Shown: positions 5,065 to 40,790 of the stretch, one piece after another
How positions within the stretch are numbered: the stretch's first letter is position 1
Layout of the letters: every line of letters begins with the position of its first letter
Assembly: GCA_001275005.1 (NCBI GenBank)
Contig: JWZX01003235.1
Span: forward strand, 1 to 40,790
DNA: 40,790 nt
Reading direction: 5' to 3'
Origin: Chrysochromulina tobinii
Lineage: Eukaryota
The notes under the pieces: generated by a model
Database searches by the model: none
Told to the model about the DNA's origin: nothing
The model's input: only the letters and a program-made list of their open reading frames with translations
Position numbers and translations under genes: made by a program

Positions 5065-8052
5065 ATGGATCCCACCGCGCAGCTACTATCGGCGGAGAAG
5101 CAAGGTCTACTAGACCAGCAGCTGTCGGATATTCCTTTCAATGGTGCGTACCCCTTTCGAGCGCCTGGATATCCTATATTGAAGGCTGCCGCACACGAAT
5201 TTGGGGCGCGTGATGAATCATTTACGCCAAGCGGCCCGCCAGTGAGTCCCGGCCAGCAAGCTCGTCAAAAGTGTGGATCTCCTCGAGCTACATGTATGCT
5301 CTCCGGCCGTTCACTTTCGAGTCGAGGCACATCTCCAAGAGCAGCTCGGAGCAACGGCGATTCACCAATCTCCGCATGGCGCCACGAAAGGGCACAAGCT
5401 ATCGTAATGAAGCCTGCGACAACGCGCGCCAACGCGTTGCCTGCAAGCCCTGGCAAACCACCCGCTCCCGCATCGCCGCCGCTGTCGCCAGGCAAGGAGC
5501 CTGTCCCTGCAGTGGCCGGCAACACGACAGGAATCGCCCCGTTCCTTCCGGACACGCCTACGCCCCCCCGCCAGAGGAAGGCGACCGTAACTCAGGATCC
5601 TGGAGCGCAGAAGCTGAGCGGCCCAATGAGGATCGTGTCAAGTATCGTGTCGTCGCAGGACGCCCTAGGGAAGAGGGACGCTCAACCTCAGCGCGCGAAG
5701 CCGCACGTCACGCACCATGTTGCGTTGTTAAGCGGCAATACCGCGGTGCAGACCACCCTCGACACCAGTGGACAGCACTTGCTAACGTGGAACTCCTCGA
5801 TCATGTTGGATGGTGTCACTCTACCAGCGGCCTCGTGCAACCTCTACCAGTTCCCGTTGTGTTCGCTGGTCGCCTCTGGTCCTCAATTCATGCCATCTGG
5901 GACCCAGCTAGAAGCTCTGAAGCAGCTGCTCATCGCACTGGCGACCGATGAGTTGTGCCCATTCTTCACCACACCAGACGAAGTCGGTGCCCTGATCATG
6001 CATGCCTTCGTCGTCGGCAACACAGAGACGTCGTTGGAGCTCGCAGCCGAAATCTACCGCAAAGTCCCAAAGCTGGTCGCGCAGACGCACGCGATGCACC
6101 GAGGCGGCGTTCCATTGTTCGTAGGGGAGTCCTCGCTTCACATCTGCTGCGTCAACCGGCGTGAGGATCTGCTGTGCGAGCTCTTGCAGATCGCTCTCGA
6201 CAACCTCTCGCGTAAGGAGGTGGCAGCGCTGCTCGGCTCGCAAGCCTCGGGCATCTTCTTTCACGAGTCGCCCATGAGATGGTATGGTGGTACGACCCTT
6301 GCCTATGCATGCTGCTTCGGGCTCCGCAAGGCAGTTCACGCCATGCTCGCGAGTGGCATCGTGTCATTTAATGACACATCTAGTTCGTGCAAGCTGACGG
6401 GGATGCTTCCACTCCACATTGTTGCGGCCAATGGACATCGATCGATGTATGACTGGATGACTTTGGAACTACCCGAGGCGTACCGCGCTGACACCACGGT
6501 GCTAGCGCGGGTGGGCTCCTTGGTCAGCTTGGGGCTGTACCGTCTCAACCCGATGCAGGTGGCTGTGCGTTTGGGCGACCACAAGACGGCCAAGCATTTG
6601 CTGCGCAAGCAGTGCTCTGTGCTCTGGAAATGGGGCCCCATCACGCAATACTCAATGTGCTTGAGTGGCGTGGACTCGGCCGGTTCGGGAAGTGGCGACG
6701 TGATGGAGCTTATTGGCCGATTTGATGCGGCGAAGGAGACGACGACGCTGTTGCTCGACTCCTTCTTGCGGGGCTTCATCTATCAACTCTTTCGCCAGAA
6801 GTGGGTCAAGTTTGGTTCCCGGATCCACTATGCGCGCTGCCTCATCGACATTTTAGGTTTGATCTGCCTCATTTACACGGCCATGTGCATGAAGGTCTAT
6901 CCGTCATTGGATTCACAGATGGATCTCCGTCCTTTTGCCATTGCAATCCTGTGCATTACCGCCTTCGGTGTCGAGGAGGAGCTCAGGCGCGCGCGCCTCT
7001 TCTGGAAGAATGAGGCGGGCAAGAAGATGGGAGCAGGGCTAGGCGCTCTGAGCAACTGGACCCTGGCGAAGCAAACGATTAGTTTTGTGCACAACCACGG
7101 CGGGACCACCTTTATGCTTGCGGCCGGGTGGACGACCGTCTCTTGCCTCCTGCTGCTTTTCTTCGACTTCCCCAAAGCTGCCGAAGACGAAAGCGGCGAC
7201 CCTCTGCTGTTCCGAGATCATAAAGGTCATGAGTCAGTGTCATCTTTGAGAGAGGTGCACTCTGAGCCATACGGCGATGGATCAGAGGAGATGCCCGGAT
7301 TGCTGTGGCTGAGTCTCTCGCTCTCCATCTTATTCTGGATGGCGTACATCGCGCACAAGCTCTTCACACCCTTCGAATCGCTCAACATCTTCTTGCTCAT
7401 AACCTACAAGGTGTTGTTCAACGATTTCGTGGTCTTCTTGTACCTCTTCGTGTACATATTCTGCTGTTCCTACTTCACCCTGTTTGTGCTCTTCCCGCGC
7501 ACGACTGGGCCTCTGCCCTTCATGGAGCCCATGAACACTTGGTTCAGTTCATTCGAGCACTTGATGGGGATGGCACTTGTTGGATATCATTTCTCGATAT
7601 CCCTGGACCCCAAGCACTTTGAGTCCATGTCGTATCTGCAGGCCGTCGACTTCGCTGTCTTCTACATCGGCTACTACTTCTATGTGCTGTTCGCCCTCGT
7701 CCTGCTCATGAATCTATTAGTAGCGATGCTCTCATTCACCTTCGTCGAGACGCGCCTGGAGTCCGCCCTCCAAAACCGCACCGCGTTTGCCAAGTTCGTG
7801 CTACAGCTCGAATTGCAGGCGGAAGCCCTTGGCATGGATGTCCATGCTGGCGAGCCCCGTGCCGATGGCAGCAGGGCTTTCGACTTCCGAGCGATCCAGT
7901 GTTTCTCGAGCAAGTCCCGAGGGATCGACAACGATGGGCACTATGGTGCCGGAGTCGTGTCCGAAGGTGGGGATGGTGGCAGCAACGTCTTCGAAGACGT
8001 TTCTTCCGATTTAGTCGTCGCAGACCTGAGCGAGGAGCCCACAAGACACTGA
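5065..8052 (+). CDS. TRPV-like ankyrin-repeat cation channel (995 aa, no introns)
   Basis: Ankyrin repeats (GESSLHICCVN, YGGTTLAYACCFG, GMLPLHIVAANG, LNPMQVAVRLG), the TRPV linker LWKWGPITQY..LSGVD, pre-S1 LFRQKWVKFG, several hydrophobic helices, and S6 motif LLMNLLVAML. Confidence 0.8.
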   Translation: MDPTAQLLSAEKQGLLDQQLSDIPFNGAYPFRAPGYPILKAAAHEFGARDESFTPSGPPVSPGQQARQKCGSPRATCMLSGRSLSSRGTSPRAARSNGDSPISAWRHERAQAIVMKPATTRANALPASPGKPPAPASPPLSPGKEPVPAVAGNTTGIAPFLPDTPTPPRQRKATVTQDPGAQKLSGPMRIVSSIVSSQDALGKRDAQPQRAKPHVTHHVALLSGNTAVQTTLDTSGQHLLTWNSSIMLDGVTLPAASCNLYQFPLCSLVASGPQFMPSGTQLEALKQLLIALATDELCPFFTTPDEVGALIMHAFVVGNTETSLELAAEIYRKVPKLVAQTHAMHRGGVPLFVGESSLHICCVNRREDLLCELLQIALDNLSRKEVAALLGSQASGIFFHESPMRWYGGTTLAYACCFGLRKAVHAMLASGIVSFNDTSSSCKLTGMLPLHIVAANGHRSMYDWMTLELPEAYRADTTVLARVGSLVSLGLYRLNPMQVAVRLGDHKTAKHLLRKQCSVLWKWGPITQYSMCLSGVDSAGSGSGDVMELIGRFDAAKETTTLLLDSFLRGFIYQLFRQKWVKFGSRIHYARCLIDILGLICLIYTAMCMKVYPSLDSQMDLRPFAIAILCITAFGVEEELRRARLFWKNEAGKKMGAGLGALSNWTLAKQTISFVHNHGGTTFMLAAGWTTVSCLLLLFFDFPKAAEDESGDPLLFRDHKGHESVSSLREVHSEPYGDGSEEMPGLLWLSLSLSILFWMAYIAHKLFTPFESLNIFLLITYKVLFNDFVVFLYLFVYIFCCSYFTLFVLFPRTTGPLPFMEPMNTWFSSFEHLMGMALVGYHFSISLDPKHFESMSYLQAVDFAVFYIGYYFYVLFALVLLMNLLVAMLSFTFVETRLESALQNRTAFAKFVLQLELQAEALGMDVHAGEPRADGSRAFDFRAIQCFSSKSRGIDNDGHYGAGVVSEGGDGGSNVFEDVSSDLVVADLSEEPTRH

Positions 8053-8176
8053 ATGACGATGCATGTGCAGATCTAGCAAGTCCAAGTGGGAGCGGCACTG
8101 CTCCCGATTGCTCACGGTCAAATGTTGGGAGCTGAGCTGTTCCCAACTCGCGAAGGTGCACACAAGAGCTGCCAAC

Positions 8177-8511: not shown

Positions 8512-8660
8512 TTTTCATCATGAAGAGCACATAGGTGGAGTTCTTTGTTCTTGTGTGTTTGAGAGAAGGCCGCGCGGAACGCAATGCACGCGACTGCACG
8601 CGACGCGGCACGGCACACTCTTTGCCCCTTTTGTTACTGCCGGCAGTGCCATTCGACTTG

Positions 8661-10454
8661 ATGATGCGGTCCTCCTTCGGGTCGTCACGACTGCAGAAAT
8701 CCGCTATTAGCCTAGCTCACTGTCGAACCACACGCTGCCTCGCGAACATCTCATCCCGTTCGATAACAGCGGAGATCACGAGAGCCTCCTCACCACATCG
8801 GTTGCTTGCCGTCCATCAAGAGCATGCCAAAGCTTTCAACGACATTCACCTAAGCGCGTGTTGGAGTCGTGTATCAAAGCTCGCGAAACAGCATCAGCAG
8901 GACGATGCGCAGCTCCTCACGAGGCTACGGGAGCAGAGCCTCGCAATGATCCGTGAAGGCTGCCTGAGCTCGCGTGCATTGAGCAACATCGCGCATGCGC
9001 TGGCAGTCCGCAGCCCGTTGCCGCCCGAGCCGTGGGGTGAGATGTGGGATGCGATCGCACGCTCAGCGACGCGGCGTGTCGACGATTTCAACGAGCAGGA
9101 GATGTGCAACCTTGCCTGGGCATTTTCGAGCGCGCAGCGAGCCTCTTCGCCAGCCGGGCGTGACCTCTTCAACGCAGTGAGCGAGGCTGGCAGCCGACGC
9201 GCCGCGAGGTTCACGCCACTCGACCTGAGCCTGCTCGCCTGGGCCTTTGCGCGAGCGCAGCAGCCCGCTCCGCACCTCTTCGACGCGCTAGAGGAAGTCG
9301 CCATCCGCAGCGCGACCAAATTCACGCCACTACATCTCTTCAACCTGACTTGGGCCTATTCGACTCTGGGGCACCCTGCGCCTCGGCTGTACGGGGCGCT
9401 GGCGCATGCAGGCGCCGTGATGGCCGCCGATTTCGAGCCGCACCAGGCCGCCCTCACGGCCTGGGCATACGCGAACGCGGGTCACCCTGCGCCAGAGCTC
9501 TTTGATGCCCTCGCCGAGCGCCAGCTGCCAAATAAGGCAACTGCGGACTACGACTCGCTCGCGATCTGGGTGTGGGCATACGCGACCGCGCAGCACCCTT
9601 CCCCGAAGCTGTTTGCGGCGGTGGCGGAGATCGTCGTCGAGACGACCAGCTGCCAAATAAGGGACGGGAAGCTCGCAATGGCGCCCGTGGACGTGGCCAA
9701 CGTGGCCTGGGCGTACGCCGTCACCGACGAGGCAGCACCGCCCGCACTCTTCGACAGCCTGGCGCAGCAGGCACTCGCGCGGCTGGATCGGTTTGAGACG
9801 CGCCCCCTAGCGAAGCTTGCGTGGGCCTGTGCAGCGGTTGAGTACTCCCCATCCGAGGCCTTCGCCTCAAGCCTTGCCGAACGGTTTGAGTCGATGTCGT
9901 GGGAGATCCACCGAGATCGTGAGGAGCTGCGCCAGCTGCACCAGTGGCAGCTTTGGTTCGTGGAGCAGCAGCGTGCCGCGCCGTTCTCCCCTCATCTGAG
10001 CGCGCTCTGCCTTGACTCGTTCGTCCTCGGTGCTTCCGAGCATGGCACTCTCATCCCTGGGGGCACACGTGTCACGCGCTTCCAGCGACAGGTGACTGAC
10101 GGTCTGGCGGCCCTTGGGCTGCGCCCGGAGCCGGAGGTGGTCACCTCGAGTGGCTACACTCTCGACGCCCTCGTCCACTGGAAGGGCGAGCGGGTTGGGG
10201 TTGAGGCGGACGGACCACACCACTTCCGCGCACGTACCCACGTGCCGACGGCCTCGACGCAGCTCAAGCGGCGCCAGGTGCGTGCACTCGGCGAGATCCT
10301 ATGCCCCATCCCGTGGTGGGAGTGGAACGCATGCGGATCGGACGTACAGCAGCAGGGCGAGTATCTGCGCGCTGCGCTCGACCGGACGGTGGCCGAGGCC
10401 GGTGCGAGGAGGGTGGTGCCCCAGTGGCCGTGGGCAACTAAAGAATGTGGATGA
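8661..10454 (+). CDS. RAP-domain protein with helical repeats (FASTK/OPR/HPR-like organellar RNA-binding protein)
   Basis: Repeats of about 36-38 aa (F.P....AWAY/FA...HP.P.LF.A) followed by a C-terminal RAP domain (GYTLDALV..VGVEADGPHHF..STQLKRRQVRALG..PIPWWEW). The Arg/Ser-rich N-terminus from ATG 8661 resembles a transit peptide. Confidence 0.85.
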   Translation: MMRSSFGSSRLQKSAISLAHCRTTRCLANISSRSITAEITRASSPHRLLAVHQEHAKAFNDIHLSACWSRVSKLAKQHQQDDAQLLTRLREQSLAMIREGCLSSRALSNIAHALAVRSPLPPEPWGEMWDAIARSATRRVDDFNEQEMCNLAWAFSSAQRASSPAGRDLFNAVSEAGSRRAARFTPLDLSLLAWAFARAQQPAPHLFDALEEVAIRSATKFTPLHLFNLTWAYSTLGHPAPRLYGALAHAGAVMAADFEPHQAALTAWAYANAGHPAPELFDALAERQLPNKATADYDSLAIWVWAYATAQHPSPKLFAAVAEIVVETTSCQIRDGKLAMAPVDVANVAWAYAVTDEAAPPALFDSLAQQALARLDRFETRPLAKLAWACAAVEYSPSEAFASSLAERFESMSWEIHRDREELRQLHQWQLWFVEQQRAAPFSPHLSALCLDSFVLGASEHGTLIPGGTRVTRFQRQVTDGLAALGLRPEPEVVTSSGYTLDALVHWKGERVGVEADGPHHFRARTHVPTASTQLKRRQVRALGEILCPIPWWEWNACGSDVQQQGEYLRAALDRTVAEAGARRVVPQWPWATKECG

Positions 10455-10636
10455 GAGGGCCTGCTGGGTGACGTGCGGATGGCACAAGGACCGATTAAAG
10501 GACACCGGGGAGTACTCCGGGGGAACCGGAACACACATGAGAAGAGTCCAGTACAGTACCGGTACCGGTAAAAAGACACCGGGGGGAGCCGGGACACACA
10601 CGTGACACCGGCACATAGACGTTCACACGCCTTCAC

Positions 10637-10647
10637 ACCCTAAAATG
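10637..10647 (+). repeat. Left target-site duplication ACCCTAAAATG, containing the ATG that opens the element ORF
   Basis: The identical 11-mer occurs at 17206-17216. Confidence 0.85.
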
Positions 10648-13600
10648 ATCGGAGGCTCACTTGAAACCGTCGAGGCCGCGCTGGGGCCGGCCTCCCGCAA
10701 GGCCGTCAAAGGCGCCCGAAGGTGCCGCACGGCCCCTCGAGTGCAGCTCCACGCCAATGCTGGCGGAATCAAAGAAGCCGCCAACGATGACCTCTCGGCG
10801 CATATCAAGGAAAGGGCAGGCGAAGCGGCCTATGTGACGGGATACGGGGTTCCTCACCCGTGGCCGGCGATGATGGCCGCGGGGCTGGCGACACTCGCCA
10901 ACGGCCTCGCCTCGCCCCAACGGACCCCAGCCACAATCGCCGCACATCTCGGGGTGGCGAGGGTTTTGTGGCTCTTTGGAATTCGAGAGAAGCCATGCGA
11001 AGCCGATATGAGCGCCCTTGTACACGAACTCGACCTCAACTGCCCAATCGAACGGCCCCTGTGGCTGCTCCTCCAACTCAACCATGGGCAAATGTCAATT
11101 CGGGATATCCATTTTGAGGCATGGTCGCCCCTCCGAGAAGAGAGATGGCCAGGGTACCCCGCCTTATGGATCGGCCTGTGGAGAGGGGCGATGGCGGACA
11201 GGCTCCGCCTACGAGGGTTGCGTTTCTGCCGCGCGCTAGCCAGAGCGGGCATTGCCGAGCTCGCCAACTTATGCCATCCTGTGGAACTTCGACTACTAAC
11301 GTTCGAAGAGCTGTCGCAGCGCAACCCGCGAGCCATTGAGCACGGGGTTCGGCCGGCGCGAAAGGAGCACGAGGCGCTCCTCGCCGCCCTCGCCGCCATC
11401 AACGCCGAAGCCGTTCCGGGCCGTGGAGGGTGGTCTCTGATTGACGCGGCGGAGGGATGGTCACCGGCGTACGTCCCGAAGGACTTTGGCTCCCACCAGA
11501 GGCAGTGCGCACGCGAAGCTGAGAGCGCCATCAGGAGCGGAGATGGAGGGCATCAGCTCGCCGCCCACTTAGGAGTGGACATAGAGCCGCCACTGGATAA
11601 GGCGCACGCCGACGACAATGAAGGCGAGTTATCCTCCGCCGAGGAGAAGAATAGCGCCAACGGCGAGGACAAGGCCACGGTGAGGGAGGCGCGCGATAAC
11701 GCCAGCAACCAGCCGGTACGGCGCAAGAGGAGCGGCGCGACCCAACCAGAGCCAGGACCAACGGCAAAGAGAACGAGCCTTCGCGCCCGGGTTGCTCACT
11801 GGCTGCCCGTGCCCGTGTTCATCAAATTTGCGGTTAATGACGAACGTGGTGAAGCGCTGCTGATGGCGTACACGCTCACCCCTTTCCTCGTCTACTGCAT
11901 GCTCCAGAGGTATCCCGAGCTCGAGGAGGTGATCCGCGCCCAGACTCAGAGCTCTGCAGTCCACAGCTGCTTCTGGACCACCAGCGAACGTGCGCGACAC
12001 GCGGTCACGATGGGATCGGCACTCGATCTCACCGGCGAGAATGCGAGGAGCATCGAAGAGGCGAAGGTACTCGGGCTCCAATGGGACGTGTGGGAAAGGC
12101 ACCACCGAGACCAACCGGCGAACCAGGAGCCAGCGGAGAGGAGGCCCCAACAGGCCCTTATCCAAACGGAGCCGGTAGGCGTGAGCCCCCAGCGCCCGGC
12201 TAAGATGCGAACTCGGGCTGCAGCTGCTGCTCGACCCCGGCCTCCTAACACAGCCCAAGTAGCCCCAGCCCAAGCGCGCACCGCACCACCAGTTCCCAGC
12301 GCTGCGGACGAGGATGAGCACGACGAACTCCTTGAGCTCATCCGCCGCAACCGCTGCGCGCGCGACGCGACACGTGCAGACGAGGCACGGTGCGAGGAGG
12401 ATCTACGCGCGCGTATGGACATAGGAATCAATCTGGAGAAGGCTCGACAGTTCCTCGAGGCGATCGCGGGCAAAAAAGAGGCATCGACGGTAGACGGTGA
12501 CGAGCTCCCCGGAGCCCAGCCGACGGTGACGGGGGCTAGACGCCTCGAGGCATGGCAGCTCGAGGAGGAGCTGCCTATCGACCCTTCAGCCCCTCCCCTC
12601 TCCTGTGCCCAACTGCGGCGCGAGGCACTCACCCCCCCACTGGAGACAGACGAGACGTGCCGAGTCATACGAGCAACCGACCCCTTTGGAGTCCTTGCCA
12701 TTGCGCTGCACCCGGACAGACCCCCTCACGACCAAGAAGTTCACAGGGCCTTCGTCGCTGTACGGGACAGGCTAGAGCGAGAACAGGGTCGATGGGACCG
12801 GGGGCCCACGGTGAGGCACCCACGGCGAGCGGCTGCGAGACGAGCAGTCCAAGCAGCGTGGCACGCGACACGTGGACGCGCCTCACGCCTGATCCTGTGG
12901 GGCAGATGGACGGCGTCCATGAGGGGCCCCATCACCACCACACTGCAGAGCCTCGTCGACACCGCCGCTCTGGAGAAGGTTGCAAACTCGACCGATGCAG
13001 CCCAACCCGGCAAGTACCCGGGGCGCACCGTCGGCGGGGAAATCGCAGAGCTCTTAGCGAAGGCTGCACCGGACGGAGAGAACGCGGCGACAGCCCGCGT
13101 CGAAGCTCACTACCGCCACTCTCGGCGTGGCGCTCGCATAGTAGCGGCGGGCTTCGTCAGGTACTCACGAGAGTTTGTGGACGGACCGGACCCCTTCCAG
13201 AGTGCGAGACTGGTCCGCACGGCGGCGTGGGAAGACATCAGCTACGAAGGAGACGACCAGGCCTGTTACCCGACGGCCCAACTGGCACTCTTTGGACAAG
13301 CCGGGGCCCAGATGACGACGTTCGTAACTTACCCCAAGGCGGTCCGCCGCGCGGTAGGCGACCATCTTATCAGGCACGATAAGATGGATTCAGAGGAGAG
13401 GCTGGCTCACGCCAAGACACTCCTCAACGCCCTCGACAATGGCGGTTCGGTCACAACGTGGGCGGTCAAGCTCGGTGACGCCTACCGAACAGGGGCGGTG
13501 GCCGACACGAACCTTCAGCTCGACCTACCCGAACAACGTACCTTCAACGTTGCCAGGTTCGCGGCGGAGGCAGATGCGGGGGCCACGTGGCTGGAAAGGC

Positions 13601-16600
13601 GGCGACCGGCGCTGGTCGAGTTTGTGACCAACACCAACCGGCACATGGGCGACGGAGCGCGCCGCCACGTACTCACGGCGAAATCTTTTGTCCTTCAGGA
13701 CTACGAGGGCGCCTCGAGGGCTGCAAAGACAGAATGGGCGAGGGTGACGGGAGGGGAGATCATCAGCCTACAACACGACGGGGTGCGCATCAGGCTTGGA
13801 GCGAGGTGGCGGGCGGAGAGTGCAGCTAGAGCCCTCACGGAGACGTGCTCGGCCGTGCTGGGGTATAGGCAAACGGTCGCCGTCAAGTCGCTAGCGACAG
13901 CCGAAGAGACCGGAAGACGGACGACCAAACCCCAGCGCATCCCGGCGCCCGTCGTGCAGGTCGAGCAACCTCTCCTCTCTCGCGGCGCCAACCCCCGAAA
14001 TGGCGACGCCCGCGCTGCGCTCGAGCTCGCTATGGCGGCGATGGCGGGAACATCGACCCCCGCAGCCTGTGTCGATCAACATTTGGCAGGCGCTGATCAA
14101 CTGGATCTTGACGGGCGCCGAAGGAGAGCCGTCTACTCCTATGACGGCCAGCCTGAACCGGAGCAACGAGTGTGGCGCACGCGGGTGCAAGGAGGGCACC
14201 ACGTTGAGTGGCGGGGCAGGGGACAAGAGTGGCTCGAGAAGGTCACGAAGGAGTACAAGATCGACGCAGATGGCGCAGTGCAGGGCAACCCGCTAGCACA
14301 GCACGTCCCCCTGGCCGCAAGGTTTTGGTGGGAGTGTCAAAAGCTGTGCAAGGAAAAGAAGGCCAACGCGAAAGAGTGCAGATTTGTATTCGCCCAACTT
14401 CTTCGCATTGAGGCCGAGTACCCGGTCACGCATTTCGTCGCCTCCGACGGCAGCAAGGGCCGAACGGGGCCGGACGAGCAGATGCGGATCGGACGGGCCT
14501 GTATCGTCCTCGACAAGCTCAACGCAAAGGCGACTGAAATTGGCGGCGAGCTCGACATCCAATTCGACAACTTTGAACGACACTCGTACGAGGCGGAACT
14601 TGCGGCGTTTCACGACCATCTCGCGGCCACCGCCGACACCGTCACAGTCTTTATCACCGATTGCCTCAGCGGAGCTCAAGCGGGCCAAGCTTATGAGGCT
14701 CGCACCGACGCAGGGATGAGGGCGTGCTACCGCAGCAAGGAGCTCGACAACCTTGACCGCCTCGAGCAACGGCACCGAGCTGTCATCTACGTCCACGTGC
14801 GCTCCCACAAGGGCATCATCCCGAACGAGGCTGCCGATGTCATCGCGGATAAGATGCGCGAGGGCGGCGCCAAGAGCTACCTCCACCTCGACATCATGCC
14901 TTCCAGGCACGCGCTCTGCACCTTCAAGGGGGTGAAGCGAAGCATTGGTCGCGCCGGGCTCGACTGGTGCAACGCGGCGGTGGTGAATCACCTCCTGGGG
15001 GCCGTAGTCTACACCCTCCTCCCCAACAAGTTCACGTGGGAGCCCTTTCGGAACTCCCCCGTGAAAGGTAGGGTAATGACCGAGGCGACCTATGACGCGC
15101 TGGCCGACTGCCGTGCCAATCGGGGTGGGCTCAACGGAGATCGACGAGAAGATGACCCAGACAAGCCCCCGCCGCCGGTGGATAAGGATCAGGCATGGGC
15201 ACGAATGGAGAGGCGGAGCCGGCGCGGATCCTTTGACCGATGGGCGCAGAACCACGCTCCGTGCCCAGGGTGCTCAGGTTTTGCGTGCGGCGAGTGCACG
15301 GTTGAGGGGCTCTGGAACATGAATGGCCCGGCCCAGACCAGATGGCACGTGCTCACGGAGTGCGCAGACGTGCGGCTCACCGAGCTCCGACTCAAGGCGG
15401 CCGAATGGCTCTCGAACAAGCTCGAACAATTCGGCAGGGAAGCGCAATGGGCGCTGGCCGCCCTTTCGGGCGCAGGGAACCAGCTACGACCCGATCAGAG
15501 AATGGCCGCCCTGCGGTTCATGCTCGGCTTACCCAACGGGGTCGCGCCCGAATGCCGTGATGGCGAGTCCAAGCTTGCAAAAGGCTACGGGAAAGGGTTT
15601 CTCAAGTGGATTGGCGAGATCATCCGCACAGCGGGTAGGACAGCGCAGACGGCCCGCTCGGGGCCGGACCGACCCACCGTACAAGTTCGGTGGCTCCAAA
15701 CCGAAGGCCGTGCCAAGTGGACGTCGACACGAACAAAGTGGATGGCGACGAGAGGGTGGAGGGAGGTACACGAGGGGGCCGGCCAGGTGAGGACGTGCTT
15801 CAGAGCCCTGCGCACATGGGCAGCGGCGGCGGGACCGAACGCCCTACGACAGCACAAACAAGCGCGCCAAGTCCAGAAAGGCGGTGCCGGCTCCTTTTTC
15901 ACCCCGACGCCGGATGAGACCCGATGCGGCAACGCGGCGTACGATGAGTGGTCCACCCTCATCACCCAAAGGGCGGTCGCACCTTGCTTCGCGAAGTGGG
16001 TCGCCCTCGTCACCCAACCGGCTAACGCGGCCGCCCCCCCGAACCCCGGGGGACAGGGCTCCGCAGCCGATAGGGAGGCCGAGCGCCGAGCGCGCGCACG
16101 GCGGGTGTGGCTACGCCACGCCGGCTACGATCCGGACCTCACCAGACGGGTGGACGAGGCAGCCAAAACGGAGAGCGACGCCAAGGAGCAAGTGCGCGCT
16201 GACAGGCGGGATGCTTGCAACCGGAAGCGGGACGCGAGGGCTGCGGGCAAGCGTAACCGCGCGGAGGCACGCACGGCGAGGAACGACGACAAAGCCACAC
16301 AGGCGAAAGTTGCCGACGCCGCCAACGCAGCCCAGTCGGCTGCAGTGGGACGAAGCAAACGAGCCTCACACGCAACCACGAACGCCGCCATCCACGCCGC
16401 CAAAAAAGTCTCCCAGAGGCCGGAAACACAGGACGGGGAGACGAGACCCACTGCCTCGGCAGACCCACTGACACGCCGGTGCGAACGCCCAAAGTGCACC
16501 ATGGGCCATTTCCTCCATCGGTCGAGCGGCGCCGACACCGCCGACTCGATACGGTGTAACGGACCGTGCCAACGGGTCATCCCCAGAGGCGAGGAACGAA

Positions 16601-17112
16601 TCAGCTGCTGCGGCACGGAGTGCGACGTCGACATCTGCATACCGTGCACGGGGGAAGGGACGAGGGAGCGCGACGGGTTCCCCCCACCGACGTGCACAGC
16701 GGGCCATACCCTGACCTTCGCGAGGAGAGGGCCCCCGAGCGGAGATGGGCTGAAGTGCGACGGGGAATGCGGACGCCGCATTCACGAAGGCGTGTGGAGG
16801 TACAGCTGCGAAACCTGTGACGCCGACTGGTGCGCCTCGTGCGAACGCACGAGCCATGAAGAGAGGGCCACCAAGAGAGCGCGGAGGGGGGGTGAGCGGA
16901 CTCCGCCAGCGCAGTTCGGAAAGGAGGTGCCGAAACGAGGGCAGACGGGGGAACCAGCGATGGTGCGCGCGCGGCGCGCGGTACGCAGTACAGAGTCGGC
17001 CCGGCCTAGCGCCGGGACCGACGATGCCAGGGGGCCCTCCAAAAGGGGGCCCCCGACGGCTGAGCCCCCTGAGCCCGCACTTGATCAGAGAGGCTCCCGT
17101 CAACGTGTGTAA
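10645..17112 (+). CDS. 2155-aa retroelement polyprotein: RT-thumb-like remnant, J-like domain, TV-Pol/PolA-like polymerase, RNase H, CCHC knuckle, two Cys-rich zinc fingers
   Basis: PolA-like motifs YEGDDQACYP (13243-13272), AKTLLNALDNGG (13411-13446), SFVLQDYE (13684-13707) and SLQHDG (13765-13782). RNase H motifs ASDGS, EAEL, FITDC and HVRSHKG..NEAAD (14431-14853). CPGC...TRWHVLTEC (15262-15363). Two C.xGH.L..C.G.C..SC..CD.D.C..C repeats (16480-16842). Confidence 0.8.
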   Translation: MIGGSLETVEAALGPASRKAVKGARRCRTAPRVQLHANAGGIKEAANDDLSAHIKERAGEAAYVTGYGVPHPWPAMMAAGLATLANGLASPQRTPATIAAHLGVARVLWLFGIREKPCEADMSALVHELDLNCPIERPLWLLLQLNHGQMSIRDIHFEAWSPLREERWPGYPALWIGLWRGAMADRLRLRGLRFCRALARAGIAELANLCHPVELRLLTFEELSQRNPRAIEHGVRPARKEHEALLAALAAINAEAVPGRGGWSLIDAAEGWSPAYVPKDFGSHQRQCAREAESAIRSGDGGHQLAAHLGVDIEPPLDKAHADDNEGELSSAEEKNSANGEDKATVREARDNASNQPVRRKRSGATQPEPGPTAKRTSLRARVAHWLPVPVFIKFAVNDERGEALLMAYTLTPFLVYCMLQRYPELEEVIRAQTQSSAVHSCFWTTSERARHAVTMGSALDLTGENARSIEEAKVLGLQWDVWERHHRDQPANQEPAERRPQQALIQTEPVGVSPQRPAKMRTRAAAAARPRPPNTAQVAPAQARTAPPVPSAADEDEHDELLELIRRNRCARDATRADEARCEEDLRARMDIGINLEKARQFLEAIAGKKEASTVDGDELPGAQPTVTGARRLEAWQLEEELPIDPSAPPLSCAQLRREALTPPLETDETCRVIRATDPFGVLAIALHPDRPPHDQEVHRAFVAVRDRLEREQGRWDRGPTVRHPRRAAARRAVQAAWHATRGRASRLILWGRWTASMRGPITTTLQSLVDTAALEKVANSTDAAQPGKYPGRTVGGEIAELLAKAAPDGENAATARVEAHYRHSRRGARIVAAGFVRYSREFVDGPDPFQSARLVRTAAWEDISYEGDDQACYPTAQLALFGQAGAQMTTFVTYPKAVRRAVGDHLIRHDKMDSEERLAHAKTLLNALDNGGSVTTWAVKLGDAYRTGAVADTNLQLDLPEQRTFNVARFAAEADAGATWLERRRPALVEFVTNTNRHMGDGARRHVLTAKSFVLQDYEGASRAAKTEWARVTGGEIISLQHDGVRIRLGARWRAESAARALTETCSAVLGYRQTVAVKSLATAEETGRRTTKPQRIPAPVVQVEQPLLSRGANPRNGDARAALELAMAAMAGTSTPAACVDQHLAGADQLDLDGRRRRAVYSYDGQPEPEQRVWRTRVQGGHHVEWRGRGQEWLEKVTKEYKIDADGAVQGNPLAQHVPLAARFWWECQKLCKEKKANAKECRFVFAQLLRIEAEYPVTHFVASDGSKGRTGPDEQMRIGRACIVLDKLNAKATEIGGELDIQFDNFERHSYEAELAAFHDHLAATADTVTVFITDCLSGAQAGQAYEARTDAGMRACYRSKELDNLDRLEQRHRAVIYVHVRSHKGIIPNEAADVIADKMREGGAKSYLHLDIMPSRHALCTFKGVKRSIGRAGLDWCNAAVVNHLLGAVVYTLLPNKFTWEPFRNSPVKGRVMTEATYDALADCRANRGGLNGDRREDDPDKPPPPVDKDQAWARMERRSRRGSFDRWAQNHAPCPGCSGFACGECTVEGLWNMNGPAQTRWHVLTECADVRLTELRLKAAEWLSNKLEQFGREAQWALAALSGAGNQLRPDQRMAALRFMLGLPNGVAPECRDGESKLAKGYGKGFLKWIGEIIRTAGRTAQTARSGPDRPTVQVRWLQTEGRAKWTSTRTKWMATRGWREVHEGAGQVRTCFRALRTWAAAAGPNALRQHKQARQVQKGGAGSFFTPTPDETRCGNAAYDEWSTLITQRAVAPCFAKWVALVTQPANAAAPPNPGGQGSAADREAERRARARRVWLRHAGYDPDLTRRVDEAAKTESDAKEQVRADRRDACNRKRDARAAGKRNRAEARTARNDDKATQAKVADAANAAQSAAVGRSKRASHATTNAAIHAAKKVSQRPETQDGETRPTASADPLTRRCERPKCTMGHFLHRSSGADTADSIRCNGPCQRVIPRGEERISCCGTECDVDICIPCTGEGTRERDGFPPPTCTAGHTLTFARRGPPSGDGLKCDGECGRRIHEGVWRYSCETCDADWCASCERTSHEERATKRARRGGERTPPAQFGKEVPKRGQTGEPAMVRARRAVRSTESARPSAGTDDARGPSKRGPPTAEPPEPALDQRGSRQRV

Positions 17113-17205
17113 AGTGTGTCTGTGTGAGCGCCTCCCACGCACGCCTTTTCGGGGCTTGTGGGTGTGTGTCTGGCCGAGAGGGCCCTGAAACGAACGAACG
17201 AACGA
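10648..17205 (+). mobile_element. 5'-truncated non-LTR (LINE-like) retrotransposon, about 6.56 kb
   Basis: 11-bp TSD, short 3' UTR and an (AACG)4 tail abutting the right TSD. The ORF has RNase H and a LINE-type CCHC knuckle. Its N-terminus resembles the post-RT thumb region. No RT or endonuclease core is visible, consistent with truncation. Confidence 0.8.
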
Positions 17206-17216
17206 ACCCTAAAATG
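17189..17216 (+). repeat. (AACG)4 3' tail of the retroelement plus right TSD ACCCTAAAATG
   Basis: AACGAACGAACGAACG at 17189-17204, then A, then the TSD at 17206-17216. Confidence 0.85.
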
Positions 17217-18269
17217 TCGCGATTGCCTTTCCACCTCTTGTTCTTCATGGGCTTGGCCGCGGGCCCTGTGGTCGTGGACCCCGCAACGGGCATTGTGACG
17301 CCCGATTTCCTGGCGAGCGAGCAGCTCTTCTACGAGCAGCTCGCCAAACCACATTTCAGCTCGCAGCAGATGGAGTATATCGACGGTGCATCCAGCACTG
17401 TGCTCCGGAACCCATATTCAATCTTGCATTCTGGCCTCGATGAGCTCTTCGTGGCGTCGTTCACGCTCAATCATGTCGTGCGGCTTCGTTGGATGACGGG
17501 CAAACGCGCCCAATACAAGGTGTTCGCATCCGGGAAGGAGCTTGACGGGCCGGTGGGCATGGCGCTGCACAGGGGTGCGCTCTTCATTGCATCGTTCACC
17601 AACGACCTCGTGCTGCGCGTGAACGCGACCAGTGGTGAGCTGCTCGGGCGCATAGGCTCCGATGAGACGCTCGACTGCCCCGAAGGCATTGCCATCGGTC
17701 CCGATGGCGTCCTGTACGTGGCCTCTTTCCTACTGCCCCACCTCTCTATGTTTGACCCAGAATCTGGTGCGTACCTGGGCAAATTTGGCGCGTCTGCGGG
17801 CACATCGGTCGCCTTCGCGAGCACCAAGACGCCCGGGCCCTCCTTGCGCGGCGCCGAGGACTTGACATTCGACCTGCTCGGCGATGTTCATGTCACGGCC
17901 TACTACTCGAATGCCATCTTCAAGTTCAACGGCACGAACGGCCAGATCGTGAGCTCGTACGGCAAGGGTTTCGTCAACGGACCGGTAGGCATCACGTGCG
18001 ATCGTGCAAGTGGCCACATTTTCGTCAGCTCGTACAAGGACCACAAGGTCCTCCGCTTCTCTCCTCTCGGCCAGTTCATTGGCGTCGCCGCGGGCGCTCC
18101 GATGGAGCAACAGAGGAAGCTCGGAGACCCAAACGCCCCCATCCGCAACCCAAGCGGACTGGCCTTTGCGGAGGATGGCACGCTCTGGGTCGCATCTTAT
18201 CCGACAGGAGCCATCACAAGGTTCAACAACAGCGCCGCCACCGGCCGCACTTGGAGGGTAGTCGACTAG
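17214..18269 (+). CDS. NHL-repeat / beta-propeller protein, probably secreted
   Basis: Signal-peptide-like start MSRLPFHLLFFMGLAAG. Repeats LDGPVGMAL, LDCPEGIAIGPDGVLYVAS, LRGAEDLTFD, VNGPVGITCD and IRNPSGLAFAEDGTLWVAS. Confidence 0.8.
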   Translation: MSRLPFHLLFFMGLAAGPVVVDPATGIVTPDFLASEQLFYEQLAKPHFSSQQMEYIDGASSTVLRNPYSILHSGLDELFVASFTLNHVVRLRWMTGKRAQYKVFASGKELDGPVGMALHRGALFIASFTNDLVLRVNATSGELLGRIGSDETLDCPEGIAIGPDGVLYVASFLLPHLSMFDPESGAYLGKFGASAGTSVAFASTKTPGPSLRGAEDLTFDLLGDVHVTAYYSNAIFKFNGTNGQIVSSYGKGFVNGPVGITCDRASGHIFVSSYKDHKVLRFSPLGQFIGVAAGAPMEQQRKLGDPNAPIRNPSGLAFAEDGTLWVASYPTGAITRFNNSAATGRTWRVVD

Positions 18270-35947: not shown

Positions 35948-38900
35948 CTACCAGTCATCGTCATCTTCCTCGTCTTGGTCCGAGCGCGCTGCCATGGCAT
36001 TACGTCGCGATGCGAGCACCGCTGCGAGCTGCTTCGTGAGGCTCGAGGCATCTGCAGCGGCCGGCGCTGACGAGGGCAGCTCGCGGCTCGAGACTGGCTT
36101 AAGAGAGAAGTTGCCTGAAGCAATGGCTGCGAGCGCCGCGCCTCGGCTTTCCAAATCCGGCGTCCGAGACGCTGGCATCGTTGCTGCCCGAGGCCGGGGC
36201 ACTGGTGTCGTCGCAGCCGACGGCTCGGGAGGCGGCGGCGCCGGAGGTGGTACTGTGCGGACTATCGGCGGGGTCAGCAGGGGCGGCAGAGGCGGCGCAT
36301 GCGGTGGAAGTGATCTGCTGACTATCGGCGGGGCCAGCAAGGGCGGCGGAGGCGGCGCGTGCGGTGGAGGTGGTACTGTGCTGACTATCGGCGGGGGCAG
36401 CAGCGGCGGCGGGGTGAGCAGCGGCGGCGGAGGCGGCGCGTGCGGTGGAGGTGATCTGCTGACTATCGGCGGGGCCAGCAGGGGCGGCGGAGGCGGCGCG
36501 TGCGGTGGAGGTGCTTCTGACCGTGCACGCAGCACCGGGCTCGCAGCCGTCAGTGGCTCCGAGGGCGGGGGCTTATGGGGAGGAGAGAATGAAGCTCTTG
36601 CGTTCGCCGCTGCCGCCTCGGCGGCAGCCATTGCCGCCGCCTTGATCTCCAACGCCCAAGCCGCTGCCTCGATCTCCGCCTCGATCTCCGCCTCAGCCTG
36701 CTCAACTTCGTGAGATGGCGCCGCTGGCTTCGCACGGGTGCCCGCTGCCTGCGGATTCGTGCTTGCTACCGTCGGATAAGTCTCTGTGCTCTTCGGGTTG
36801 CCGGAGGAGGACACGCGCGTCACCGTGCGCCGCCAAAGGTCACCTGCGTCGGCCGCGTCCGCCGCAGGCGCAGTCCCGGCGGAGACGTCAAGCTTGGGCT
36901 TCGGCTGCACCGAAGCCGCCGCCGAGGTCGGCACCTCAGGCACCAGGACCGGTAGCTCCGCCTCGAAGAATCCGCCCGGGACGACACCGTCAGGTACTTC
37001 CACTTGATACAGGTTGCCATCGGGTCCTGAAATGGCAAGAAAGTGGCCCGGTCCGGCGAACGTTGGGCACTGGACCACCGCCACAAAAAAGGAGAGAGCC
37101 GGCTCTGCGCCCTCCACGGGCGGGGCGCCCAACACGGCGTTCGGCGCCACGGCACTCTCCGGCTGACTCACCGCCTTAGTGCCAGTGCGTGCTTGGCAGG
37201 GTGCAGCTTCCCTCGTGGGTGGCGCGAGGGTGGGAGCCGCTGGGACGGCTGGGGCGGGTGTGGCCGCCGCCCCGCCGGCGGCGGTGGCAGCGCTGGTAGC
37301 TTTTATGGCTGTGGTGCCGACGACGGCGGCCGGCAGCGACGCGCCGGAGGAGACGGCGGCCGGTGGCGAGGCAGAGGCGAGCACGAGGCGCACAGGGATC
37401 CCAGCCGACTCGATGAGCACACTCGTGCCATCCCTACCCCATCCGCACACGTTCACCTCGTTCACCGAGACTACAACGTCGCCAGCTCGCACGCCCATCG
37501 CCTGCGCCATCGAGCCCACGGACACCGCGTCGACCACCGTCCTGCCGCACCGCCCGTTGGCCAGCGACAGCCCAAAAAGGGAGTGACCGTTGGGATCCGG
37601 AGATTCAATCTTGAGCTCCCACTCAGCGAGCTCCACTCGCTCGCCAAAGGCGTTCATATCAGTCAGAGTGCCCTCATCGGCGGCGGCGGCGGGCGGCGCG
37701 TCGGCGGCGGGCGGTGCAACCCGGACCGGCGACGCGCTCGTAGTGCGAGGCGTGCCCGCGGTGCGCGGTGGGCCCGCGGCGGATGGCGCGCCAGCGGTGC
37801 GCGGCGTGCCTGCGGTGGAGGCGCCGGCCGTCGGTGCCGTGCGACGAGAGCTCGCAGCAAGCCCAGCGATCGCCTGCCCAATGCCTGGGATGAGCGGCAT
37901 GCTCGCAAGGCGCCCCTCGATCATATTCTCCGCGATGAGCGTCACGATCACGCGCGCCGTCTCGGGGTCGATCAGGTCGCTCCTCCGCACACCGGCCGCC
38001 TTGAAGATCTGCTTCCACTCATCAGGAATGTTGCGTAACTCAAAGCCCTGTTGGGGCGTCCAGCCCACGTGCGTCACATGCGTCACATTCGTGGGTGCGC
38101 TGATCGTCGACTTGGGCTGCGAAGAGAACATGCTTCTCCACGCGATGGGACGCGAGGAGACGGACTTGGTTCGCACGAGGGCCACCTTGGACACGACTGG
38201 TGCGACTGGTTGGTCTGGCCCAATGGAGCGCATCCCGATGCATGCTGGACTGGGCGATACTGGTTCGGGCGTGCCACGAAAGCCCGCATGGCGCACCACC
38301 GTCGTGATGGGCTTCACAGGCTGCTCCTCTGGCTGGGAAGACGCGCAGCCCATCCTCCAGTGTGCTGTGCTCTCCACACACAGTCCGATTTTGGAAGGCG
38401 ACACGGCGGCCGGTACTGGAGGCTCGCGCGACCTCGAGCGCGCGTGCGAGGAAGGCAGGCAGCACTGTGTGAGCTCGACCCTTGCATGCGGGCCGTGCAG
38501 CCGACCCGCCACGGAAGCAGGCACAGTCTGATTGGGGTCTAATTGTCTGATGGTCTGTCTGATGGGGGGCACAGTCTGATTCGGTGCCCCGCCCTCGGCA
38601 CACGTCGCGTGAACATGAGCGTGGGCGTCCTCCTCCTTCTCCGCCTCCGCGCCCACCTCCACCGTGCTCGCCCACCGCAGCGAGGCCACGAGCCGCACGG
38701 CCGCCTCAAGGGTGGCGAGGCCAAAGCCGAGCACACCCAATAAGAGCCCGGGCTGTGAATGTGAACTCATCAAGTAGCCCTCTACGAGGGCGAGGAGTGA
38801 TGCGAGCCGCTCGGGACGCGCGCGCACGAGCACGTACGCCATCAGCGGGATGAGCTCGTCCGCGCCCACGGCGACGCCGCGCCCGCTGCCCGTGGGCGCC

Positions 38901-39691
38901 TCCAGATCGTTCGGTTCGCCTCCAATGCCTCCTTCTGTGCAGCGCGCGGCCGCCGCGCATGCTTCTACAAAAGTACGGAGAGCCGCGACGGGCGAGGCGC
39001 AGCCGCTCAGCCGACGCGCGAGGGCGATGGAGGGCGCGTAGGGCAGCGCCTCATCGTCGTATCTCCCGCACGCCGCCTCGTAGGTGTCCAGCCAGAAGCG
39101 CGCGTCAATCCCAAGGTGGCGTGGCAGCAGCCCTCGCAGCTCGTCGAGGCGCGCGGCCACGGCTGCGTCCTCGTTTGCATGTGCCGCGTGAAGCAGCGGC
39201 TGCAGAGTGCCGGCGCATAAGCCAAAGAGCGCATCGCAGCACACCTCGGCGGCCTCAGCACCGGCGGTACCGTCGTTGAGCACGGGCAACACCTCCCCAA
39301 CGAGGGCTTGCAGCCTGGAGCTCCCGTGCGACATGGCCGCAAGCGCGTCCTCGACTTGGCCGTGCGGTGCGTGCGCAGCGATGCGCGCGGCAAAACTGGC
39401 GGCCACGCTCCCCAACGGCGTTGTCCGGTCCGTCAGCGTTGCGAGCAGACGCTCACGGACGAGGGCCCTGTCGTCCGGGCTGCTGGCGATGGCGGCCATC
39501 CACTCGGCGGTGCCGGTCGAGTAGGAGAGCGTGATGGATAGCGCCGTGCGACTGATGCGGTCCACACTGGCACTGCACACGAGCGGCGCGGGCGGCTCGT
39601 CTTCGAACGCAGTGTCGAACACGTCGTCGACGGCCGCACACAGCAGCGACACCATTGGACGCCGTTTGGTGCTCGCCAGGACGCGGTACAT
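35948..39691 (-). CDS. WASP-like Arp2/3 activator with VPS9 - CRIB/GBD - PDZ - polyproline - WH2/C/A architecture
   Basis: VPS9 GADELIPLMAYVLVRA. CRIB/GBD ISAPTNVTHVTHVGW..GF..RNIPDEWKQIFKAAGV. PDZ FGLSL..VDAVSVGSMA..GVRAGDVVVSVNE. WH2 RGAALAAIASGNFSLKPV, C-helix LTKQLAAVLASRRNAM and acidic end DEEDDDDW. Alternative start at 39655. Confidence 0.82.
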   Translation of the reverse strand: MYRVLASTKRRPMVSLLCAAVDDVFDTAFEDEPPAPLVCSASVDRISRTALSITLSYSTGTAEWMAAIASSPDDRALVRERLLATLTDRTTPLGSVAASFAARIAAHAPHGQVEDALAAMSHGSSRLQALVGEVLPVLNDGTAGAEAAEVCCDALFGLCAGTLQPLLHAAHANEDAAVAARLDELRGLLPRHLGIDARFWLDTYEAACGRYDDEALPYAPSIALARRLSGCASPVAALRTFVEACAAAARCTEGGIGGEPNDLEAPTGSGRGVAVGADELIPLMAYVLVRARPERLASLLALVEGYLMSSHSQPGLLLGVLGFGLATLEAAVRLVASLRWASTVEVGAEAEKEEDAHAHVHATCAEGGAPNQTVPPIRQTIRQLDPNQTVPASVAGRLHGPHARVELTQCCLPSSHARSRSREPPVPAAVSPSKIGLCVESTAHWRMGCASSQPEEQPVKPITTVVRHAGFRGTPEPVSPSPACIGMRSIGPDQPVAPVVSKVALVRTKSVSSRPIAWRSMFSSQPKSTISAPTNVTHVTHVGWTPQQGFELRNIPDEWKQIFKAAGVRRSDLIDPETARVIVTLIAENMIEGRLASMPLIPGIGQAIAGLAASSRRTAPTAGASTAGTPRTAGAPSAAGPPRTAGTPRTTSASPVRVAPPAADAPPAAAADEGTLTDMNAFGERVELAEWELKIESPDPNGHSLFGLSLANGRCGRTVVDAVSVGSMAQAMGVRAGDVVVSVNEVNVCGWGRDGTSVLIESAGIPVRLVLASASPPAAVSSGASLPAAVVGTTAIKATSAATAAGGAAATPAPAVPAAPTLAPPTREAAPCQARTGTKAVSQPESAVAPNAVLGAPPVEGAEPALSFFVAVVQCPTFAGPGHFLAISGPDGNLYQVEVPDGVVPGGFFEAELPVLVPEVPTSAAASVQPKPKLDVSAGTAPAADAADAGDLWRRTVTRVSSSGNPKSTETYPTVASTNPQAAGTRAKPAAPSHEVEQAEAEIEAEIEAAAWALEIKAAAMAAAEAAAANARASFSPPHKPPPSEPLTAASPVLRARSEAPPPHAPPPPPLLAPPIVSRSPPPHAPPPPPLLTPPPLLPPPIVSTVPPPPHAPPPPPLLAPPIVSRSLPPHAPPLPPLLTPPIVRTVPPPAPPPPEPSAATTPVPRPRAATMPASRTPDLESRGAALAAIASGNFSLKPVSSRELPSSAPAAADASSLTKQLAAVLASRRNAMAARSDQDEEDDDDW

Positions 39692-40034
39692 TACGTACTC
39701 TTGAAACTTACGTTTAGTCAGTTACACCGTCACTTTCTTCTCGGTCCCCCCGCGCTCACCAACAGGACGGCTCCGCTCCCCTCGAAGTTTACGGTAGCCC
39801 CACATGAACCCGCCGCGGGCTGACCACGTCTCGAGTGATGGGCGAGCGCCTCAAACAGAACAAACAGCTCGCGGGTACGTTGAGTTCCCGACTTCTGGCT
39901 GGAACCGTTCAACTTTCTCAACCTAGAACCTTAGGCTACGTTCTATTGGCTACACGTTACAGCTTTCCCGTCACGACTCACGGTGTGTGTGTTTACCGAC
40001 GAGCATGTCCAAATTTGCGCTTTGTCATCGCGCG

Positions 40035-40790
40035 CTACCAGTCATCCTCATCTTCCTCGCCTTGGTCCGAGCGCGCTGCCATGGCGTTGCGTCGCGATTC
40101 GAGCACCGCCGCGAGTTGCTTCGTGAGGCTCGAGGCGTCTGCAGCGGCCGGCGCTGACGAGGGCAGCTCGCGGCTCGAGACTGGCTTCAGAGAGAAGTTG
40201 ACTGAAGCAATGGCTACGAGCGCCGCGCCTCGGCTTTCCAAATCCGGCGTAGCAGAAGCTGGCGTCCGAGACGCTGACATCTTCGCTGCCCGAGGCCGGG
40301 GCACTGGTGTCGACGCAGCCGACGGCTCGGGAGGCGGCGGCGCCGGAGGTGGTATTGAGCTGACTATCGGCGGGGTCAGCAGGGGCGGCAAGGGCGGCGC
40401 ATGCGGTGGAGGTGCTTCTGACCGTACATGCAGCACCGGGCTCGCAGCCGTCGATGGCTCCGAGGGCGGGGGCTTCGGGGGAGGAGAGAATGAAGCTCTT
40501 GCGTTCGCCGCTGCCGCCTCGGCGGCAGCCATTGCCGCCGCCTTGATCTCCAACGCCCAAGCCGCTGCCTCGATCTCCGCCTCGATCTCCGCCTCAGCCT
40601 GCTCAACTTCGTGAGATGGCGCCGCTGGCTTCGCACGGGTGCCCACTGCCTGCGGATTCGTGCTTGCTACCGTCGGATAGGTCTCTGTGCTCTTCGGGTT
40701 GCCGGAGGAGGACACGCGCGTCACCGTGCGCCGCCAAAGGTCACCTGCGTCGGCCGCGTCCGCCGCAGGCGCAGTCCCGGCGGAGACGTC
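40035..40790 (-). CDS. 3' end of a tandem paralog of the WASP-like gene (VCA module); continues beyond the window
   Basis: 39999-40790 aligns with 35911-36889 at high identity and ends in the same WH2-C-A with terminal Trp. Confidence 0.75.
   Translation of the reverse strand, partial: DVSAGTAPAADAADAGDLWRRTVTRVSSSGNPKSTETYPTVASTNPQAVGTRAKPAAPSHEVEQAEAEIEAEIEAAAWALEIKAAAMAAAEAAAANARASFSPPPKPPPSEPSTAASPVLHVRSEAPPPHAPPLPPLLTPPIVSSIPPPAPPPPEPSAASTPVPRPRAAKMSASRTPASATPDLESRGAALVAIASVNFSLKPVSSRELPSSAPAAADASSLTKQLAAVLESRRNAMAARSDQGEEDEDDW

Follow-up and report, generated by a model that had tools for sequence, protein, structure and literature searches.

Background and related systems

Retrotransposons without long terminal repeats (non-LTR) insert by target-primed reverse transcription (TPRT), in which an APE endonuclease nicks the target, the reverse transcriptase (RT) copies RNA from the nick, and RNase H can remove the RNA. 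Whether the second strand of such insertions is made by the RT of the element or by host enzymes is an open question. Second-strand synthesis by the R2 RT was first observed in vitro only in 2026 (PMC13000458). Here we describe a 40,790-nucleotide stretch of DNA from the alga Chrysochromulina tobinii (contig JWZX01003235.1, “the window”), which contains a copy of a long interspersed nuclear element (LINE) whose polyprotein carries, in addition to LINE-type domains, a predicted family A DNA polymerase (PolA) module that resembles the transposon-virus polymerases (TV-Pols).

The defining features of TV-Pols are a thumb, an Arg in a hairpin, two Asp and an RxxxK motif, and the family is reported never to be fused to nucleases (Iyer, Abhiman and Aravind 2008, PMC2579912). 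The match to this family was claimed in an earlier reading of the window, made from the DNA letters alone (the sequence-only reading), and it stands in part. With TV-Pols such as Sputnik V13 and the TVpol-S3H of Polinton-like viruses (PLVs) the module shares the fold of a minimal PolA core without exonuclease, the hairpin Arg, both Asp and the motif B Lys. It differs in that there is no D5/SF3 helicase, in its fusion to RT, APE and RNase H, in the presence of an N-terminal J-domain-like unit, and in the replacement of the RxxxK Arg; in the window the fingers read LxxxK, with an Arg one residue earlier. The association of TV-Pols with a D5-like helicase or a resolvase/integrase, free of nuclease fusion, is not seen here. 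Because both RxxxK and the helicase context fail, the domain is classed only as a TV-Pol-like module, in what would be a new LINE variant.

CcPol is a catalytically characterised TV-Pol, and the CcPol-MP and PolA-SSB (single-stranded DNA-binding protein) primases of SCCmec likewise have a PolA core within a mobile element, but these are bacterial DNA elements with an adjoining helicase and a requirement for an OB-fold SSB, neither of which is seen here (PMC10061031). Amongst retroelements, the algal Dualen/RandI LINEs have a very long single open reading frame (ORF), APE, RT, RNase H, a CCHC finger and accessory domains, as does the element described here; they differ in being defined by an added restriction-like endonuclease, and the available text gives no PolA domain for Dualen (PMC5029228, PMC8557442). 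A restriction-like endonuclease was not found here by Pfam or, as a PD-(D/E)xK motif, by eye, no dedicated profile having been used. The Chlamys and Naiad Penelope-like elements (PLEs) have in common with five of the module proteins discussed below (P0014, P0019, P0024, P0187, P0072) a GIY-YIG-like region at the N-terminus and RT motifs of the PLE type. Accessory domains inserted in the RT (PHD, SAP) are known in Penelope-like elements, but no PolA insert is described, and the word “polymerase” is absent from the main text (PMC8557442). Prokaryotic Group D retroelements combine RT and DNA polymerase A in one ORF, but they are prokaryotic and, in the text available, are not described as TPRT transposons (PMC5029228). 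A literature search, with Repbase and subscription papers outside its scope, found no PolA domain described in a eukaryotic retrotransposon and, as the sequence-only reading had supposed, no LINE with a second, PolA-type polymerase.

Fold of the polymerase module

The stop-free frame 10606-17112 (2168 codons) holds all of the motifs listed in the sequence-only reading: VEAHY (starting at 13099), SREF (13165), EGDDQACYP (13246), AKTLLNALDNGG (13411), SFVLQDYE (13684), SLQHDG (13765) and VAVKS (13876). A pattern of three of these motifs had a single match in the six frames of the window and none in 2000 shuffles of the ORF, a weak control given that the pattern was derived from the same motifs. 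Residues are numbered from position 10606 (D883/884, K937, D1058), which is 13 above a count from the ATG at 10645.

No polymerase domain was detected with Pfam, PHROGs, NCBIfam or PDB sequences. An AlphaFold model of aa 680-1100, based on 92 aligned sequences (pLDDT 94.3, pTM 0.92), has the expected palm, fingers and thumb of family A DNA polymerases. The top matches listed by Foldseek against the PDB are all family A polymerases (E 1e-5, with 90 matches at E<=0.001), and VIA aligns 288 residues with Pol theta (Z 14.5, root-mean-square deviation (rmsd) 4.0) and also matches Klenow (Z 13.4). The best match amongst viral models (BFVD) is the 778-aa DNA replication protein of the Zamilon virophage (E 3e-11, TM 0.57), which we take to be of the Sputnik V13 type, and a virophage helicase/primase/polymerase ranks seventh. 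Identity to the Zamilon protein is 12%, so that kinship with TV-Pols is one of structural rank, with no sequence-level link. An Atlas feature search placed the module near unnamed viral clusters (0.94-0.96), the nearest named cluster (0.85) having DNA_pol_A in 44% of its members. In viral contigs, 0 of 54 pattern matches were true module relatives, and none was found in phage records.

The PolA match covers residues 96-421 of the model and residues 1-95 are J-like; the core is thus minimal and has no exonuclease domain. A Walker A helicase motif is absent from every module protein, in agreement with the earlier remark that no helicase accompanies the domain. The J-like unit, which that reading had missed, folds separately (pLDDT 90.5) and precedes the polymerase in 65 of the 71 module proteins with room upstream. 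J-domain proteins lead its Foldseek matches (E 0.2 and worse) and make up nearly all of the first 17 rows in VIA (best Z 8.5, rmsd 3.2, 78 residues aligned), scores that are modest for a small helical fold. The HPD motif, which in J-domains lies between helices II and III, was found after helix I in 0 of 41 module proteins.

Residue conservation and selection

Conservation was assessed in 75 non-redundant modules, obtained from 109 of sufficient length by removing 34 at >=93% identity. The three residues for which conservation had been anticipated (D870, K924 and D1045 when counted from the ATG) are nearly invariant: the motif A Asp D883 and the motif B Lys K937 are each kept in 74/75 modules, and D1058 of motif C, together with H1057, in 70 of the 72 that cover it. 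The hairpin Arg R855, which lies on a predicted strand, is kept in 65/66 covered modules. Thus, the two catalytic aspartates of family A (motifs A and C) are present, D883 and D1058 being equated with the Pol I residues through motif order and secondary structure rather than residue-level superposition. Within the lineage of the window both metal-binding Asp, the Lys, the His and the hairpin Arg are kept in 9/9 modules.

The ratio of nonsynonymous to synonymous substitution (dN/dS, Nei-Gojobori) of module DNA is 0-0.37 in all 80 unsaturated pairs, which are not independent of one another (595 pairs examined, 101 past filters, 21 of these saturated). Judged from these coding sequences, the module is under purifying selection.

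Full-length element and sister families

Three longer proteins, P0154 (2663 aa), P0201 and P0195 (3209 aa), are 97-100% identical to one another over the stretch between RT and RNase H, both included. The order in P0195 is APE, RT (VFVDD), post-RT region, J-like unit, PolA, RNase H, Cys/His knuckle and C1-like fingers, so that the upstream RT and endonuclease predicted to lie in the same ORF were found. Both were assigned in P0195 by purpose-built profiles; its RT matches that of R2 (E 2e-5), and Pfam, which has no match on P0195, finds APE and RT in the sister proteins P0155, P0173 and P0232. The combination of APE and non-LTR RT that defines APE-type non-LTR retrotransposons is therefore present in a protein 99% identical to that of the window, whose ORF aligns from aa 506 of P0154. 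None of the three outcomes named beforehand as contrary (no PolA fold, loss of the domain or its residues, no RT) was observed. A stand-alone element without RT was rejected, as 99%-identical longer copies carry RT in frame. A nested DNA transposon or virophage fragment was also rejected: the module is in frame, has no helicase, and occupies the same position across families that are 44% alike.

In sister families (3140-4516 aa) the module is found at the same place and is 44-46% identical, the flanking linkers being 16-31% identical. Amongst 12 RT relatives 7 have the module, 3 do not, and 2 end too early; two relatives are labelled Chrysochromulina parva by their source. Carriers of the module at this position form one clade in the RNase H tree (0.98), consistent with a single gain, which the RT tree does not resolve. 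The sister LINE P0234 has a chromodomain at the module position. Contigs from RNA runs cover the module, a match that cannot show transcription. In L002 a section of the module (7309-8166) has the opposite orientation to the remainder of the element, as in a twin-priming inversion. The Gln..Cys and His-Trp pattern in the N-terminal residues 1-160 of P0160 is presumably akin to that of a papain-type protease (Josephin or C48), which Dualen elements also carry; this stretch has no Pfam match.

Distribution of the module among retroelements

A representative search gave 301 matches, and 106 of the best 150 match the module. It occupies at least five positions, spread over two LINE lineages and the Penelope-like elements; the sequence-only reading, which placed the domain in a LINE, was right but understated its scope, since the module is common to at least three retroelement lineages. 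The contexts are (a) the layout of the window; (b) P0238, of the same broad lineage, with the module after RNase H; (c) a second LINE type with the order APE-RT-RNase H-module in one frame of 2588 codons (L023), to which belong 14 more with only RNase H upstream (one also with APE); (d) Penelope-like P0014 and P0024, with a GIY-YIG-like region, module and RT; and (e) Penelope-like P0019, P0187 and P0072, in which the module interrupts the RT between its ADK and KTHK motifs. The Penelope label is our assumption from characteristic motifs and purpose-built profiles, with no Pfam match. RT, RNase H, APE or GIY-YIG neighbours accompany 32/75 modules, and every assigned context is a retroelement; the remaining 43/75 are mostly fragments of unassigned context.

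In the module tree group (d) is placed with the lineage of the window (0.99), and the proteins of group (e) branch among those of the second LINE type, which suggests that the module has been exchanged between retroelement classes. Different retroelement lineages appear to have gained it repeatedly from each other. Because the trees (FastTree, local support) have midpoint or single-outgroup roots, the direction of transfer cannot be read from them.

Two further arrangements were observed. L034 (1-3876) and L033 (1-3033) encode RNase H, the PolA module, a GNAT acetyltransferase and a SET domain in one frame. In P0020 and P0026, possibly another type of carrier, the module stands at the C-terminus, after some 400 unassigned residues in which Cys/His motifs occur.

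The insertion in the window

The copy in the window has a target-site duplication (TSD), a simple-repeat tail, a truncated 5' end and no LTR, as do APE-type non-LTR retrotransposons. The TSD and microsatellite tail of the sequence-only reading were recovered as the pair ACCCTAAAATG, whose sole occurrences in the window are at 10637 and 17206, and as (AACG)4.8 at 17189-17207. An empty site is found in a contig of run X8, which joins 10647 to 17234. In run X6 one contig has the 5' junction of the window, and another extends 2644 nt upstream of 10649 into RT-side sequence. Since it is bounded by a TSD, with an empty site and with contigs for both the junction and a longer copy, the element is a real, polymorphic, 5'-truncated insertion. 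Contig depth is higher over the element than over its flanks, which is not a copy number. In run X8, of which two thirds were read, the module is thinly covered, to which no significance is attached. A chimeric assembly was rejected, because the window junction and the longer copy are on separate contigs and the layout is kept in independent proteins.

Proposed role of the module in integration

The architecture, fold, residue conservation, purifying selection and recent mobility documented above are those of a module that is real, intact, selected and widespread among algal retroelements, and that is a predicted polymerase. We lean modestly towards the view that the LINE-family polyprotein carries a likely active TV-Pol-type polymerase, and that this enzyme likely extends an existing 3' end, either to make the second strand or to close gaps at the 5' junction. 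After TPRT and removal of the RNA by RNase H, the PolA core would use the nicked top strand at the target as its primer and copy the cDNA, or fill the 5' junction; the J-like unit would assist it structurally or by binding DNA. On the best reading of the data, a TV-Pol-type enzyme was captured and has been retained for synthesis from a primer, whether of the second strand or to fill gaps.

Several observations weigh against this. The RxxxK Arg is present in 1/9 modules of the lineage of the window (48 Arg and 5 Lys in all 75), and its replacement may weaken nucleotide binding; L023, of the second LINE type, is a relative in which RxxxK is intact. The low dN/dS values come mostly from pairs of the second LINE lineage; dS is saturated for the window's own pairs, and the window and L002 give 0.56 at 45% identity, so that the proposed dN/dS measurement bore out constraint in the 80 unsaturated pairs and not for the window itself. 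The module is broken in copies L001 and L002. It is less conserved (44-46%) than RT (61-63%) and RNase H (57-61%), and it is dispensable, because 3/10 long RT relatives are without it. Furthermore, R2 RT alone can make the second strand in vitro (PMC13000458).

Alternatively, the module might be a primase-polymerase that starts the second strand de novo on the cDNA, with no need of a second nick. TV-Pols are predicted to be primase-polymerases (PMC2579912), CcPol primes together with its partner MP (PMC10061031), the nearest viral fold is a virophage TV-Pol, and that LINEs and Penelope-like elements have both acquired the module suggests a need independent of endonuclease type. However, CcPol alone merely extends primers and requires an OB-fold SSB (PMC10061031), the partner here is all-helical and J-like with no SSB evident, and under the established TPRT model the 11-bp TSD implies that a second, staggered nick was made, at which a 3' OH is available. 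Because of this SSB requirement and the nick implied by the TSD, de novo priming is weaker than primer extension and seems unlikely; for the first of these reasons, the primase part of the mechanism in the sequence-only reading is its weaker half. Loss of the RxxxK Arg in 8/9 modules of the lineage, sister LINEs with a chromodomain or nothing at the module position, and the freedom of that position in the polyprotein, even within RT, would fit a catalytically weak or dead domain in this lineage, retained to bind nucleic acid or to act as a scaffold, in the manner of the accessory chromo, SET, GNAT and PHD domains found in other algal elements. We regard this as somewhat less likely again, the metal-binding Asp pair, Lys, His and hairpin Arg being kept throughout the lineage and in nearly all other modules.

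An active polymerase could also work outside integration, in extrachromosomal amplification of element DNA or during infection by giant viruses or virophages. Its relatives by fold and Atlas features are viral, and retrotransposons nest in virophages and PLVs (PMC12220804), but with no helicase motif in any module protein, no relative in the viral contigs or phage records searched, and no direct support, this is improbable. Least credible, and very doubtful, is a selfish in-frame insert, comparable to an intein, that spreads among retroelements without helping its hosts: the several insertion positions, one of them within RT, and the mixing of backbones in the module tree would be expected of it, but the lineage of the window shows a single stable position with long vertical descent, inspection by eye revealed no nuclease or splicing motif, and selection on the polymerase residues is strong.

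Beyond primer-dependent synthesis in this family, a broader proposal, which we consider evenly balanced, is that the J-like and TV-Pol unit is of viral origin and forms an exchangeable second-strand enzyme, perhaps self-priming, repeatedly acquired by algal LINEs and Penelope-like elements. If so, these eukaryotic retrotransposons would divide DNA synthesis between two polymerases, with RT making the first strand and PolA, which may prime itself, the second; the module would then be a portable part for completing RT-based gene insertion; it could serve as a compact second-strand part in retrotransposon-based systems. As PolA is a separate, mutable domain, the second-strand step becomes testable by one point mutation, compared with natural sister families that have no such domain. 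The module also ties virophage and Polinton-like replication proteins to retroelements, and gives TV-Pol a helicase-free context.

Features of the window

The features of the element and its target are listed in Table 1.

Table 1. Features at and around the LINE insertion in the window.
Feature	Position	Strand	Remarks
5' TSD copy ACCCTAAAATG, 11 bp	10637..10647	+	supplies in-frame ATG (10645) to truncated ORF
Single ORF, 2155 aa from ATG	10645..17112	+	98-100% identity with P0154, starting at aa 506 of that protein
Conserved post-RT region	10648..11547	+	also in sister LINEs without module
5'-truncated LINE copy	10649..17205	+	break about 55 codons past RT domain; extra A at 10648
J-domain-like helical unit	12646..12909	+	no canonical HPD motif; travels with polymerase
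Family A (TV-Pol-like) polymerase core	12928..13890	+	without exonuclease or helicase
Core residues	hairpin Arg 13168, motif A Asp 13252, motif B Lys 13414, motif C His-Asp 13774-13779	+	
RNase H domain	14419..14850	+	Pfam RNase_H E 6e-5, a weak match under the curated cut-off; 58-62% identical to sister families
Cys/His zinc-knuckle-like stretch after RNase H	15256..15363	+	sequence and alignment; presumably LINE-type CCHC, a label with no library match behind it
Two C1-like zinc fingers	16477..16845	+	Pfam C1_2 E 6.5e-5
3' untranslated region (UTR) and (AACG)n tail	17113..17205	+	pre-tail motif resembles that of relative L001, which ends (AACGTG)3
3' TSD copy	17206..17216	+	includes start codon of host gene
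Host NHL/SMP-30-like gene	17214..18269	+	Pfam SGL and NHL; insertion site is the start codon

The element landed precisely on the ATG of the host gene, and the TSD places a second copy of that ATG in phase with the truncated ORF (10637-10650); expression from the host promoter could therefore yield a protein of 2155 aa that has PolA and RNase H and no RT. The target includes ACCCTAA, similar to the telomere repeat, at this single site. At 10703 the copy in the window does not have 15 bases (5 codons) that are found in contigs of X1, X2 and X6 and in P0154, which may be a private deletion or an assembly slip.

The 3' UTR (17116-17205) and a short repeat upstream of the element (10562-10608) recruit very many contigs and are likely high-copy families; for the 3' UTR this may reflect a SINE (short interspersed nuclear element) or LINE tail in common with this element. 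Upstream of the insertion, 8535-10454 encodes an ordinary helical repeat protein with a RAP/FAST domain. Further downstream lies a long minus-strand ORF whose proline-rich 3' end has a second copy close by (35948-39721 and 40035-40790).

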